Part shown: piece after piece, positions 29,717 to 33,744 of the stretch | How positions within the stretch are numbered: position 1 is the stretch's first letter | Layout of the letters: each line of letters begins with the position of its first letter | Source of the DNA: an uncultured Planctomycetaceae bacterium | GTDB taxonomy: Bacteria; Planctomycetota; Planctomycetia; Planctomycetales; Planctomycetaceae | Reading direction: 5' to 3' | Length of the DNA: 64,000 nt | Assembly: GCA_963815195.1 (NCBI GenBank) | Contig: CAWFGE010000008.1 | Location: forward strand, 320,001-384,000 | Translations under genes and position numbers: made by a program | Notes under the pieces: model-generated | The model's input: only the letters and a program-made list of their open reading frames with translations | Databases searched by the model: none | What the model was told of the DNA's origin: nothing

Positions 29717-29790
29717 TACCCAGAGCAGGAATCGAACCTGCAAACACTCGGGTTTAAGCCGAGTCGCTCTGCCAGTTGGCGTATCTGGGC
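29717..29790 (-). tRNA. tRNA-Leu(TAA), short variable loop
   Basis: GCCCAGA/TCTGGGT acceptor; CTCGG-CT TAA AC-CCGAG; GCAGG TTCGATT CCTGC. Confidence 0.85.
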
Positions 29791-29802
29791 CTATTCTTTC
29801 AG

Positions 29803-29874
29803 TAGTCCCGGACGGAATCGAACCATCGTTTCCTGGACGTCAACCAAGCGTCGTCACCATTGGACCACGGGACT
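29803..29874 (-). tRNA. tRNA-Val(GAC)
   Basis: AGTCCCG/CGGGACT; CTTGG-TT GAC GT-CCAGG; GATGG TTCGATT CCGTC. Confidence 0.85.
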
Positions 29875-29882
29875 GAATTAAG

Positions 29883-29980
29883 TGGACCCACCCGGAATTG
29901 CACCAGGGCACCGATGGGCCGCAGGCGGGATTGATCCTCCGGCCTGCGACGCCGGCATCTTCCTGTTGGACGATGAGCCC
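29883..29980 (-). tRNA. tRNA-Ala(CGC) with ~30-nt insertion in the variable region (possibly pseudo)
   Basis: G3:T70 acceptor GGGCTCA/TGGGTCC; CCGGC-GT CGC AG-GCCGG; inserted mini-element at 29906-29937. Confidence 0.7.
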
Positions 29981-30008
29981 CTTTGGCAAGCGAAGGTTTG
30001 CTCGCAAG

Positions 30009-30079
30009 CACGCCCCCAAGGACTTGAACCCTGACCAACTGGGTTGGAGCCAGTCATGCTGCGATGACACCAGAGGCGT
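30009..30079 (-). tRNA. tRNA-Trp(CCA)
   Basis: ACGCCTC/GGGGCGT; ACTGG-CT CCA AC-CCAGT; CAGGG TTCAAGT CCTTG. Confidence 0.85.
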
Positions 30080-30090
30080 GTGTTGTTGAG

Positions 30091-30175
30091 CGGAAGCCGT
30101 GAGACTCGAACTCACAAGCGGTTTACGCCGCCACCTGTTTTCAAGACAGGCTCCTCATCCGGCCGGATGACTTCC
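30091..30175 (-). tRNA. tRNA-Ser(TGA)
   Basis: GGAAGTC/GGCTTCC; CCTGT-CT TGA AA-ACAGG; long variable arm GCGG-CGTAAA-CCGC; G73. Confidence 0.9.
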
Positions 30176-30184
30176 GATTTTTAG

Positions 30185-30217
30185 CTGCGGGAGTTGAATC
30201 GAACCAACGGTTTCCTG
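30185..30217 (-). pseudogene. 3' half of a tRNA (T-arm plus acceptor 3' strand), 5' half missing; possibly Gln
   Basis: CAGG AAACC GTTGG TTCGATT CAAC TCCCGCA G; upstream sequence is not tRNA-like. Confidence 0.6.
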
Positions 30218-30361
30218 AGATGGAGGGATGGAGCAATTTGATAGACGAATTGCCGATACATCTTCCGATCGAATTGCCAGACTGGCGAGAAGAAATCAAT
30301 GCAGCCTAGCCTGACGATGAAACGCTTGTTCTTTTCAAACGAGGACAGGAAACTTGAAAGG

Positions 30362-30436
30362 CTGCGGAGGCAGGAATCGAACCTGCGTCTGGGCGATTAA
30401 CAGTCGCCTTCCCGTACCAACACAGGACCCACCGCA
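30362..30436 (-). tRNA. tRNA-Asn(GTT)
   Basis: TGCGGTG/CTCCGCA; GGCGA-CT GTT AA-TCGCC; GCAGG TTCGATT CCTGC. Confidence 0.85.
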
Positions 30437-30462
30437 GAATTATGAAACCGTCAATGGCGGAG

Positions 30463-30547
30463 TCAGGATGGTCGGGACCAATCCGGACTTCGGCCGATCG
30501 GTGCCCGAACCGGCGGTCGGCGGATGACCAGACTTTCCCATATCCTG
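30463..30547 (-). pseudogene. Disrupted tRNA-Pro-like gene (mini-element in T-loop, anticodon arm lost)
   Basis: CAGGATA/CATCCTG acceptor resembling Pro (C1:G72, A73); T-loop interrupted by 30475-30506. Confidence 0.6.
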
Positions 30548-30555
30548 AAATCGAA

Positions 30556-30626
30556 AGCGCCCAGCGGGAGTCGAACCCGCAATTCCGCCATGGCAAGGCG
30601 GTAGGTTTCCGCTACATCATGGGCGC
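30556..30626 (-). tRNA. tRNA-Gly(GCC)
   Basis: GCGCCCA/TGGGCGC, T73; CCGCC-TT GCC AT-GGCGG; GCGGG TTCGACT CCCGC. Confidence 0.85.
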
Positions 30627-30638
30627 GGCTTGATTGAG

Positions 30639-30711
30639 TGGGACCGGAGGGGCTCGAACCCTCACCGAACCGGTTAAGAGCCGGTCATGCTGCCGCTAAC
30701 ACCTCGATCCC
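30639..30711 (-). tRNA. tRNA-Lys(CTT)
   Basis: GGGATCG/CGGTCCC; ACCGG-CT CTT AA-CCGGT; GAGGG TTCGAGC CCCTC. Confidence 0.9.
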
Positions 30712-30728
30712 GTGTTGATATTCTTGAT

Positions 30729-30800
30729 TGAGCCTGGATGGAGTCGAACCATCGTCTGGCCCTTATAAGGAGCCGGCTCTGACCGTTGAGCTACAGGCCC
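30729..30800 (-). tRNA. tRNA-Ile(TAT)
   Basis: GGGCCTG/CAGGCTC, A73; canonical D-arm TAGCTCAACGGTCAGAGC; GGCTC-CT TAT AA-GGGCC. Confidence 0.9.
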
Positions 30801-30815
30801 TTTTTCGTTTGGCAA

Positions 30816-30887
30816 TGAGGCCGGAGGGATTTGAACCCCCACCGTGCAGGTTAAAAGCCTGCTGTGCTCCCGTTACACCACGACCCC
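30816..30887 (-). tRNA. tRNA-Lys(TTT)
   Basis: GGGGTCG/CGGCCTC; GCAGG-CT TTT AA-CCTGC; GGGGG TTCAAAT CCCTC. Confidence 0.9.
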
Positions 30888-30951
30888 GGAATTGATCGTG
30901 GCGTCTGTTTCCATCGCTGCAAAAAAAACATGAGATAGCCTCTCGGAAAAG

Positions 30952-31024
30952 TAGCCCGGGAAGGAATCGAACCTTCATTTCCGCCTTATCAGGGCGGCGT
31001 CCTAAACCATTGAACGACCGGGCT
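30952..31024 (-). tRNA. tRNA-Ile(GAT)
   Basis: AGCCCGG/CCGGGCT; CCGCC-CT GAT AA-GGCGG; GAAGG TTCGATT CCTTC. Confidence 0.9.
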
Positions 31025-31102
31025 AATTGGTGAATTGTAAGTCGGGATGGCCGGACTCGAACCGGCGACTCCGTGCTCCCAAGGCACGTGGGGTGCCGCT
31101 CG

Positions 31103-32571
31103 CCACCCCTTTCAACATGTTAGATTTTTGCTATAAGTCGCTTCTACAGGGATTGTTGTATCAAACCTTATGGAGGCGGCAAGGATGTGGCCCGACGCTG
31201 TGCTTGATCGTTTTGTGGAAGAATGTCCAGCGGCAGTGATGGTTCGAGCAACGCTCGAGAATCTTGTGTCGCCGGATCGACTGGATGAGATTTTCGCCGA
31301 CGCTTCGCAGAGACAATACGAGAAAGAATTGCTGTTTTCGCAAGTGGTGGCCCTGATGATGGGCGTGGCGACGCGGACGCACACGTCGGTCCATGCCGGG
31401 TACTTGGCCGCCAAGGAGCAACTGGCGGTTTCGCCGGCCGCACTTTATGGCAAGTTGAACCGTCTGGAACCCGGCCTTTCGGCGACGATGATCCGGGAAA
31501 CGAGCCAGGACGCGGCTCAAGTCATCGATGCCATGCCGGGAGCATGCCGCGAACTTTTGCCGGGCTATCACGTGCAGTATTTGGACGGGAATCATTTGGC
31601 GGCGACTGAGCATCGGCTGGCGGAATTGCGCGTCACGCGGGAAGGCCCTTTGCCGGGCCAGACCTTGGCGCTTCTGGACGCGCAGCGGGATCTGATTTCG
31701 GAACTGCTCCCGTGTGAAGACGGGCATGCTCAGGAACGTTCGCTTCTGCCGGAGCTTCTGGAATGGATCCGGGCCGAGACGGTGACAATCGCCGACCGGA
31801 ACTTCTGCACGACCAAGTTTCTGTTTGGAATTGTCAAGCAGTCGGCCTACTTTGTCATTCGCCAACACGCTTCGACACTCACCTGGAAACTCGTCGGTCG
31901 CCGGAAACGCATCGGACGCATCGAAACGGGTCTTGTTTTCGAGCAGTCGGCCGAGCTGTCCCAGGGTGAAGAGACGTTGCGAGTCCGGCGGATCACCATC
32001 CAATTGGATACGCCCACAGAGAATGGTGACACTGAGATTCACATCCTGACCAACTTGCCTGTCAAAGTCGCCAATGCGCGAAAAGTGGCTTTTCTGTATC
32101 GCAAGCGCTGGACGATTGAAGAAGCCTTCCAAACTCTGACCGAGGTGTTGCGCTGCGAAGTGGAGACGCTGGGCTACCCCAAGGCGGCGCTGTTCGCCTT
32201 CGCCACGGCGGTTTTGGCTTATAACACCTATGCCGTGGTGAAAGCGGCGCTGCGATCGGTTCACGGTGAAGAAACGATCGATGAAGAACTGTCGGACTAC
32301 CACCTGACGCAGGACGTGACTGCCACGACGGTGGGCATGAACATCGCCGTGGACGCGGAAATCTGGGAGGGCTATCAAATCATGCCACCTCGAAAACTCG
32401 CGATCGAGTTGGTGCGACTCGCGAAACGCATCGACCTGACGCGTTACCCCAAAAAGAAACGCGGGCCGAAAAAACCACAGCCTCGAAAAAAGAGCGGCAA
32501 ACGGAATCACCATATCTCCACCGCGCAACTCTGGCCAAATCCAGGGGTAAGTGACATGTTGAAAGGGGTGG
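31103..32571 (+). mobile_element. IS4-family insertion sequence
   Basis: Perfect 18-bp terminal inverted repeats CCACCCCTTTCAACATGT (31103-31120, 32554-32571); flanking direct repeat GTGCCGCTC; single DDE transposase. Confidence 0.9.
31170..32554 (+). CDS. IS4-family DDE transposase
   Basis: LDG, IADRNF, Y(RK)RWTIEEAF YREK-like motif; true stop probably TGA 32552-32554 after an indel near 32533. Confidence 0.85.
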
Positions 32572-32602
32572 GTGCCGCTCCCCTACATCCCGAGTTGTCA
32601 AA

Positions 32603-32692
32603 TAGCCCGGACCACGCTGCGGGCGCTGCCCGGAGTCGAACCCGATCCCAACCGAGTTTCGTAAACTCAGTGCCACATCCCGTGGACAGGCC
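32603..32692 (-). pseudogene. tRNA-Arg(ACG)-like gene with mini-element in the 3' T-stem
   Basis: CTGAGT-TT ACG AA-ACTCGG; TTCGACT loop; insert 32609-32631. Confidence 0.65.
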
Positions 32693-32701
32693 AGGTTGCA
32701 G

Positions 32702-32771
32702 TAGCCCGAAGTGGAGTCGAACCACTCAACCAACCTTCGGAGGGTTAGGGCCAGAATCCGCTGGCCGGGCC
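32702..32771 (-). tRNA. tRNA-Arg(CCG), atypical compact fold
   Basis: GGCCCGG/TCGGGCT; CTAACC-CT CCG AA-GGTTGG; AGTGG TTCGACT CCACT; 70 nt. Confidence 0.7.
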
Positions 32772-32810
32772 ATGATGGTGTTTTTGCTAGTGTTGTTGAA
32801 CTTGCCGAAG

Positions 32811-32883
32811 TACCCCGTAGGAGAATTGAACTCCTATCTGCGGATTGAAAGCCCGCGATCCTAAACCGTTAGACGAACGGGGC
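32811..32883 (-). tRNA. tRNA-Glu(TTC), first gene of the array
   Basis: GCCCCGT/ACGGGGT; GCGGG-CT TTC AA-TCCGC; AGGAG TTCAATT CTCCT. Confidence 0.9.
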
Positions 32884-32913: not shown

Positions 32914-32943
32914 AAAAAACCCGATGCCATTCGTGACACCGGG
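32914..32943 (-). terminator. Intrinsic terminator immediately upstream of the tRNA array
   Basis: CCCGGTGTCA-CGAA-TGGCATCGGG (10 bp including 2 GU pairs) followed by TTTTTT. Confidence 0.8.
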
Positions 32944-32976
32944 CTTCTGATGGTTCCACAGAAATGCCGCCGAGTG

Positions 32977-33078
32977 TCACAGACGCAGGGGACGCGCGGG
33001 CCGAATGTCCGCCGATTGGGGGGCGAGACGGCCATCGCGTTTGCGTTTTGAAGTGAGACTCGACCCCAAGGACATCAT
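32977..33078 (-). promoter_or_regulatory. Putative leader-peptide ORF of an attenuator (MMSLGSSLTSKRKRDGRLAPQSADIRPARPLRL*)
   Basis: AGGA/GGA purine-rich stretch before ATG; stop TGA lies within GTGACAC, which is complementary to the terminator 5' arm. Confidence 0.6.
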
Positions 33079-33293
33079 TTTTCCGGTTTCCTGTTTTTGG
33101 CCTCCGTGGGCCATTGGTTTGTTGTTCTGCCAGGATAGACGCCCACGCCGGGAGGAGGTTCGGATCTTTTTCGCGGCATGGGCTATTCCCTGTACGCGAT
33201 AACCATCGGCTTTATTCGCAAATGTCGGAGAAAAAAGGTGTCCCTCAAGTTCAGTACTTCCAAAAAAGCTCAGGAAATTGGTTTGGTTTTCAA

Positions 33294-33358
33294 GAGCCGC
33301 GCACGAAGTAAGCGGTTTCAGGGACTCAGACCGCAAGACCGCACTTCGTGCGCGGCTC
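33294..33358. repeat. REP-like inverted repeat; related half-copy at 39849-39870
   Basis: GAGCCGCGCACGAAGT ... ACTTCGTGCGCGGCTC; CCGCTTACTCTGTGCGCGGCTC at 39849. Confidence 0.75.
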
Positions 33359-33744
33359 AGGCCTTTCTTTTTTTGGAACGACTGAAGTTGAAAATCGCCT
33401 CGCATCAGACGCTTCCCCACCCGGCCGCTACCGCGTCCGACCTCCCAAGGGGAGGTGAAAGAGCACACAAGATATTCTTTAACACCATCGTAGTTGGCCC
33501 CCTCATTAGCCGGAAGAACCGGTTTTTGGTAATAAATAAGGCAGTGGCGACGAACTCGACCCGGCGCTGTCGTCCCGAAAGTGAAAGCACCGAGAGAAGG
33601 ATCCAAACTATGTCGAACTGGATGCGCTGGGCAGACAATCCGAACGCGATCGGCTGGCAGTTTGGCAATGTTGAACAGATCGAGTAAATCGAAAACAGGG
33701 TTCCGGTTTCGAGCCCCCCCCGATGCCATCGGCTTTGATCTCCC

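Follow-up and report, generated by a model that had tools for sequence, protein, structure and literature searches.

A 64,000-nucleotide (nt) stretch of DNA from an uncultured Planctomycetaceae bacterium (contig CAWFGE010000008.1 of assembly GCA_963815195.1; hereafter, the window) carries on its minus strand a transfer RNA (tRNA) array preceded by a short leader open reading frame (ORF) and an intrinsic terminator. A sequence-only reading of this region had proposed that a translated-leader attenuator gates a spare tRNA array. The frame, stop position, helices and promoter site speak for this core, and we consider it likely that a four-segment, ribosome-coupled transcription attenuator gates a spare, long co-oriented tRNA array (L-array) and reports general elongation trouble. 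In Planctomycetia, such a switch probably lets extra tRNAs be made solely when ribosomes stall. The accompanying proposals of read-through with an absent ribosome and of macrolide or Arg/Pro/Lys sensing were not supported. The ORF, antiterminator and terminator had been recognized in that reading, and the protector helix, the extracytoplasmic function (ECF)-like promoter and the insertion sequence (IS) interrupting the array had been overlooked (Table 1).

From the anatomy, its conservation and covariation, and folding models, we infer how transcription, translation, stalling and the inducing signal would be coupled. The ECF-like promoter would start transcription ahead of the leader. During healthy translation, a ribosome at the last three codons would cover segment 2, segments 3 and 4 would form the terminator, and the array would stay silent. 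A ribosome stalled in the leader, most surely at codons 2–13, would cover segment 1, leaving segment 2 to pair with segment 3 and allowing read-through into the tRNAs. With no ribosome on the leader, segment 1 would take segment 2, and the terminator would form.

Table 1 Features of the candidate attenuator and the tRNA array in the window
Feature	Position	Strand	Basis
ECF-type promoter-like motif: GAACC (33161–33157), 15 nt, CGTCTA (33141–33136)	33136..33161	-	Recurrence upstream of leaders
Weak Shine-Dalgarno-like site	33087..33092	-	Sequence; predicted pairing
Leader ORF, 33 codons plus TGA	33078–32977	-	Sequence; frame conservation
Segment 1, putative protector strand, codons 5–9, pairs with segment 2	33053..33064	-	Window folds; covariation
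Inner hairpin, codons 18–24	33009..33026	-	85.6% of cells paired
Segment 2, stop-codon region; partner is segment 1 or segment 3	32969..32980	-	Conserved stop position
Segment 3, terminator 5′ arm and antiterminator 3′ arm	32933..32944	-	Antiterminator covariation
Segment 4 and T6 tract, intrinsic terminator 3′ arm	32914..32928	-	Terminator covariation
tRNA-Glu(TTC), first gene after the switch	32810..32883	-	ARAGORN, Rfam
Degenerate tRNA-like genes between tRNA-Glu and the IS	32620..32772	-	Sub-threshold Rfam matches
IS of 1471 bp with DDE_Tnp_1 transposase, within tRNA-Pro(TGG)	31102..32572	+	Pfam PF01609; BLAST
Array remainder: Pro (chimeric call with the IS end), Ile, Lys, Ile(TAT), Lys, Gly, Asn, Ser, Trp, Val, Leu	29717..31119	-	

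Leader, terminator and antiterminator

The 33-aa minus-strand ORF is present as originally described, its peptide ending in RPARPLRL before the TGA stop. Calling this peptide Arg/Pro-rich is apt only in part, since it contains 6 Arg but also 5 Ser, 5 Leu and only 3 Pro; no Pfam match to it was found. The weak Shine-Dalgarno-like site upstream has a predicted pairing energy of −4.3 kcal/mol with what we take to be the anti-Shine-Dalgarno motif. The stop lies within segment 2 (32980–32969), whose first 7 bases are perfectly complementary to the last 7 of the terminator 5′ arm (32944–32933), and the T6 tract (32919–32914) is followed 30 nt further on by the start of tRNA-Glu at 32883, confirming the arrangement first noted. 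The terminator hairpin has a predicted energy of −17.3 kcal/mol (z = −2.94), equalled by 1 of 200 shuffles. The antiterminator is the lowest-energy fold solely in truncated RNA (−21.6 kcal/mol, z = −2.35); in the full-length window RNA the terminator prevails over it. As a control for chance, 3 of 104 terminator-like hairpins in the source genome have a perfect 7-nt complement to their 5′ arm 10–60 nt upstream. A simple terminator scan did not list the window terminator, presumably because stem extension consumes the T run.

The combination of an ORF, an antiterminator over its stop and an intrinsic terminator recurs at 103 genome loci in the class Planctomycetia. BLAST with the leader gave partial matches in relatives. 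Seeds were 36 loci, among the matches listed, from a pattern search of 301 class genomes and of named genomes (Planctomycetaceae, Pirellulales and Thermoguttaceae), a range suggesting that the window, too, belongs to Planctomycetia. The terminator alone then served to build a covariance model, with L127, L134, L039, L040 and L056 left out of the seed alignment, and this model was run on 151 class genomes. The element is almost restricted to tRNA arrays. A same-strand tRNA lies within about 2 kb of 68 of the 76 model hits (≥26.5 bits); four of the 76 (L264, L271, L279 and L281, with neither tRNA nor promoter) were dropped before counting, and duplicates were removed too. tRNA genes are found downstream in 95 of the 103 curated loci (95 of 107 with the dropped four restored), with at least five tRNAs in 67 of them and the first tRNA no more than 100 nt from the 5′ arm in 65 of the 95. 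Five of the eight loci without a downstream tRNA stop at a contig edge within 223 nt. A pattern-selected metagenome scan yielded at least 108 distinct loci; the metagenome proportions given here and below hold among the matches listed. tRNA genes lie downstream in 74 of 79 of these loci, tRNA-Phe being the first gene in 61 of the 74 arrays.

In a phylum-wide search, the model matched 8 of 151 genomes, and the three matches outside the window's own family were bare terminators; the full element was not found outside the class in the genomes searched. Viral contigs gave 0 matches to one exact pattern, and a loose pattern scan of genome contigs returned, among the matches listed, mostly chance matches. 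Rfam gave no match over the leader at E values up to 10, only tRNAs reaching the gathering score. The Rhodopirellula-1 RNA motif was rejected as a candidate, its consensus, in the available part of PMC2864571, differing when compared by eye.

Both the reading frame and the position of its end are conserved. An ATG-started ORF of at least 15 codons reaches the stop at 97 of the 103 loci, versus 13 and 15 in the other frames, with a median length of 33 aa; among metagenome leaders, an in-frame ATG occurs in 95 of 99, versus 29 and 15. Alignment A5, which comprises 20 of the 49 genome leaders of 31–34 codons and 75 metagenome leaders, has 296 gap runs inside the ORF, all multiples of three, counted per row as non-independent events. 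The stop lies 29–42 nt upstream of the terminator arm at all 103 loci (100 TGA, 3 TAA), a count that includes the 36 seeds chosen by that very motif. Of the PLRL end that had been singled out earlier, Leu-Arg-Leu is conserved: position −3 is Leu in 79 of the 103 leaders and position −2 is Arg in 90, each encoded by six synonymous codons; the remainder of the peptide varies among loci. Speculatively, the Leu-Arg-Leu-stop end could detain the ribosome on segment 2 until termination has occurred. As in a leader-peptide attenuator, a short conserved ORF appears to lie between promoter and terminator.

Covariation extends to the paired segments. The antiterminator was analyzed in 68 model-aligned rows, none of them pattern-selected and one a spurious reverse-strand row. 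Here 91.3% of positions are paired, with 13 double changes, a count reached by none of 500 shuffles (5.5 in shuffles), and three of these changes convert TGA to TAA with the partner base altered to match. In the terminator, 97.6% of positions are paired, with 38 double changes versus 7.2 in shuffles, in an alignment that was fitted to the terminator helix. Compensatory changes are seen in both helices, and folding together with this covariation upholds the suggestion that antiterminator and terminator would be mutually exclusive. At 85 of the 103 loci, the terminator arm of the locus itself is a better partner for the stop region than are arms taken from other loci. The terminator also turns up in 97 of 103 metagenome loci, having formed no part of the pattern used to find them.

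Candidate protector helix and ribosome position

Folding the window RNA from the predicted start yields a third helix, between codons 5–9 and the stop region, that persists in the folds once segment 3 has been made. Across its 8 core pairs in A5, 87.8% of cells are paired, with 65 double changes versus 22.0 in shuffles. On a tree built without the protector columns, two protector pairs take the top two places among 2757 column pairs for same-branch change. The best duplex is centred in codons 3–11 in 74 of 91 metagenome loci. An inner hairpin shows double changes in 4 of 7 pairs and gives little signal on the tree, with 1 to 3 changes on the same branch; it may be a polymerase pause hairpin.

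A ribosome footprint folding model was applied to the window, to 82 of the 97 genome leaders and to the first 45 of 91 metagenome leaders. In the window, the modelled probability of the antiterminator is 0.08 for naked RNA, 0.97–1.0 with the P site at codons 2–20 and 0 at codons 31–33; at codons 21–24, the outcome hinges on whether pairing may span the ribosome. When the stop region is masked, all 103 loci fold into the terminator. The model agrees with the earlier proposal that a stalled ribosome would free the antiterminator and that a ribosome reaching the stop would yield the terminator. For the window it does not support the claim that an absent ribosome permits read-through, as the third helix is predicted to sequester the antiterminator arm in naked window RNA. 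Protector-dependent termination is seen in folds of the window and its close relatives; divergent leaders give a mixed picture. In these models, the third state, termination without a ribosome, is common, yet not universal.

Promoter and tRNA arrays

In its strict form, the promoter-like motif, GAACC-N15/16-CGTCTA, has 4 matches in the 8.87-Mb source genome, each lying immediately ahead of a tRNA gene or array. A looser form lies upstream of 49 of 73 homologous leaders versus 1 of 73 control windows, and the motif accompanies 48 of 68 metagenome leaders. Its shape in the window (33161–33136) resembles what we take to be that of ECF sigma promoters, and transcription would start near 33130, about 50 nt before the leader ATG. 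An array promoter downstream of the terminator would speak against attenuation; the sequence places the putative promoter upstream, and there is little space for one between terminator and tRNAs, nor any sigma-70-like site. The motif does not appear in the main text of PMC7826278.

Several further observations concern this motif and its surroundings. A 535-aa sigma-70-family gene with extra helix-turn-helix repeats (L299, G000:C16:185583, plus strand; L307–L336) is matched in 39 of 41 genomes, and a similar motif, GAACT-N15/16-GTC, lies upstream of it at 10 of 30 loci versus 0 of 30 control windows; the gene may belong to the same regulon or encode the cognate sigma factor of the promoter motif. 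An RNA ligase gene (PF09414) at L294 (G000:C9:71095, minus strand) has in front of it the promoter motif, a short ORF with a Cys-rich end and a hairpin resembling a terminator; this is a candidate second attenuated RNA-repair unit. The rtcB gene of the source genome (G000:C1:69247–70553; L305, L306) is in two pieces with a stop between them, by a genuine break or an assembly error, and has no promoter motif within 500 nt upstream. In the window, at 33246–33300 and 33290–33361, a repeat of about 55 nt, with more than 20 copies in the source genome, lies upstream of the promoter beside a long inverted repeat.

The array behind the switch is long, co-oriented and largely surplus, as in other L-arrays: 12 tRNA genes are called in the window, and 11 of the 12 anticodons also occur outside arrays in the source genome. 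The sole exception is tRNA-Ile(TAT) (30729–30800), found there only in arrays; a TAT anticodon on tRNA-Ile is unusual in bacteria. The window copy of element and array is damaged: tRNA-Phe is missing, two tRNA-like genes are degenerate (at low stringency, ARAGORN reports a tRNA-Arg near 32621–32692), and the IS, which has 14 further BLAST matches in the source genome (12 near full length), sits in a gene that scores as an intact tRNA-Pro once the IS is removed. Four DNA sequencing runs, of which contigs only were searched, gave no joint across the IS.

Among the other arrays, the homologue in G003 is followed by 23 tRNA genes, and a second leader-bearing array of the source genome lies on C5. 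Some homologous arrays are followed by HNH and Ro60 genes, which we count in favour of the attenuator reading. Several leader-bearing arrays contain an HNH endonuclease gene or are followed by one, and in one case a DUF6847 gene comes after the array (L032, L193, L265, L203). On C12 of the source genome (G000:C12:573174–578463, L302), a leader-less array of 21 tRNA genes starts about 10 nt after the promoter motif, with tRNA-Trp directly after the motif and a Ro60/TROVE gene following the array. L010 (G001:C15:455196–455330) keeps promoter and start, has a stop at codon 4, and has lost the rest of the leader and the terminator before tRNA-Phe. At L259 (G103:C24) and L282 (G127:C1), leader, promoter and terminator are all present and no tRNA is called within 2 kb; these may be decayed arrays or serve other targets.

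Competing readings and related systems

Several results weigh against a three-state attenuator. The loci are related to one another, and the seeds and metagenome matches were pattern-selected. In the window, the IS separates the switch from 11 of the 12 tRNA genes, and the second leader of the source genome ends in GAGVR, without Leu-Arg-Leu. The number of pairs with a double change does not exceed shuffles for the antiterminator (79 of 500) or the protector (151 of 500). All folds are equilibrium calculations that ignore kinetics; with segment 1 cut away, full-length naked RNA favours the terminator at 80 of 103 loci, so that read-through would require kinetic trapping. The best duplex is centred in codons 3–11 at only 45 of 97 genome loci (20 expected), divergent leaders departing from the pattern. 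A two-state switch, in which any failure of translation, including lack of initiation, gives read-through and the protector is optional or tunes a basal level, would account for the naked RNA favouring the antiterminator (probability above 0.5) in 39 of 82 genome and 12 of 45 metagenome leaders, and for the lack of a consensus structure, protector included, when RNAalifold was run on A5. We regard it as unlikely, given that the window protector forms and outlasts the synthesis of segment 3 and that protector pairs are the top co-changing columns on the tree. A still less probable reading takes the leader for an independent small-protein gene that has a terminator to itself, or sees a processing site in the hairpin, with tRNAs made by unregulated leakage or from another promoter. 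The C-terminal Leu-Arg-Leu is indeed kept at the amino-acid level, as a working peptide or degron might be, and the leader-less arrays on C12 and at G001:C15 retain the promoter motif; against this stand the variability of the remaining peptide, the scant promoter space after the terminator with no sigma-70-like site, and a stop region whose covariation with both the terminator arm and codons 5–9 would go unexplained.

The preferred three-state attenuator leaves the question of what is sensed. In codons 2–13 of 188 leaders, ATA makes up 2.62% and TTA 2.53% of codons, 12- and 4.5-fold more than in the first codons of 1369 genes of the source genome (0.21% and 0.56%), and Ser is enriched 3-fold. 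Together with the confinement of tRNA-Ile(TAT) to arrays in the source genome, this would suit a sensor gauging the supply of rare-codon or Ser tRNAs in the first 13 codons; we regard such a sensor as unlikely, because the leaders are related and show no amino-acid run, the control is one genome, the protector helix partly forces Ser codons, and none of the six rare codons examined occurs in the window leader. Arrest of macrolide-bound ribosomes at KRKR, as first suggested, is very improbable as the inducing event: in the window, KRKR occupies codons 11–14, where the model has a stall freeing the antiterminator, whereas just 1 of 97 leaders has it, and +X+ motifs are no commoner than chance predicts (23 of 97 versus 23.3 in shuffles). 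Specific sensing of Arg, Pro or Lys is contradicted by Lys making up 2% of leader residues and by the lack of a conserved amino-acid run, and an all-amino-acid leader was rejected on leader composition. As the leaders have no control-codon run, with a median of 16 residue types and tRNA genes as targets, general stalling would be the best guess for the signal, by analogy with the whiB7 upstream ORF (uORF), PA5471.1 and the Anabaena array.

Tentatively, a wider arrangement can be imagined: a two-layer translation-emergency regulon that joins a dedicated ECF-type promoter to a three-state sensor distinguishing a stalled from an absent ribosome and releases spare tRNAs with Ro60/HNH partners, Leu-Arg-Leu-stop being a new ribosome-parking signal that enforces termination.

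The proposed mechanism is of a known kind; new to us are its target, its lineage and its design, in which three covarying helices go with a promoter of their own. The trp, his and leu attenuators likewise use four segments with 1:2, 2:3 and 3:4 helices and terminate when there is no translation. They differ in having a run of control codons and a biosynthetic operon as target, whereas here the 1:2 helix spans nearly the whole ORF. T-boxes also link the choice between terminator and antiterminator to tRNA status, but bind tRNA directly and need no ORF, and no Rfam T-box match was found at the window leader; in Clostridium acetobutylicum, a T-box is said to precede an operon with tRNA genes. To our knowledge, activation of silent surplus tRNA arrays is known solely in cyanobacteria, via a protein repressor.

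The following comparisons hold for the available parts of the papers cited. In mycobacteria, efficient translation of the whiB7/wblC uORF leads to a Rho-independent terminator and translation stress to an antiterminator (PMC10274678). The planctomycete element would share this translate-to-terminate logic and the broad sensing that is not tied to one amino acid. It differs in its tRNA gene target, its leader of about 33 codons and its covarying protector helix; the mycobacterial target is a transcription factor with positive feedback, and that uORF is Ala-rich (PMC10274678). In Pseudomonas aeruginosa, the PA5471.1 leader of armZ (RtcB-like) has been proposed to respond by attenuation to ribosome-targeting drugs (PMC12057347); likened here by description and not by sequence, it governs protein genes and the MexXY pump. 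The Anabaena trn L-array is a long surplus array with an HNH neighbour and a proposed role in translational stress; cyanobacterial L-arrays are silent and induced under such stress, and Planctomycetes are among the phyla with L-arrays (PMC8421152). Control of trn is exerted at initiation by the ribbon-helix-helix repressor TrcR on direct repeats (PMC8421152, PMC10272220), and the main text of PMC8421152 has 0 occurrences of "attenuat", "leader", "uORF" or "terminator". The available part of PMC4833913 does not deal with tRNA genes. In line with the sequence-only reading, which knew of no uORF attenuator for a tRNA array, no leader-peptide attenuator of tRNA genes, nor the present element, was found in the literature searched, with most subscription literature outside that search. 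A phylum other than the cyanobacteria here appears to sense with the ribosome itself, the output tRNA feeding back on the decoding that serves as input. With more than 100 natural variants carrying compensatory changes and natural leader-less versions at hand, the question of what induces such arrays is directly testable with a short reporter.
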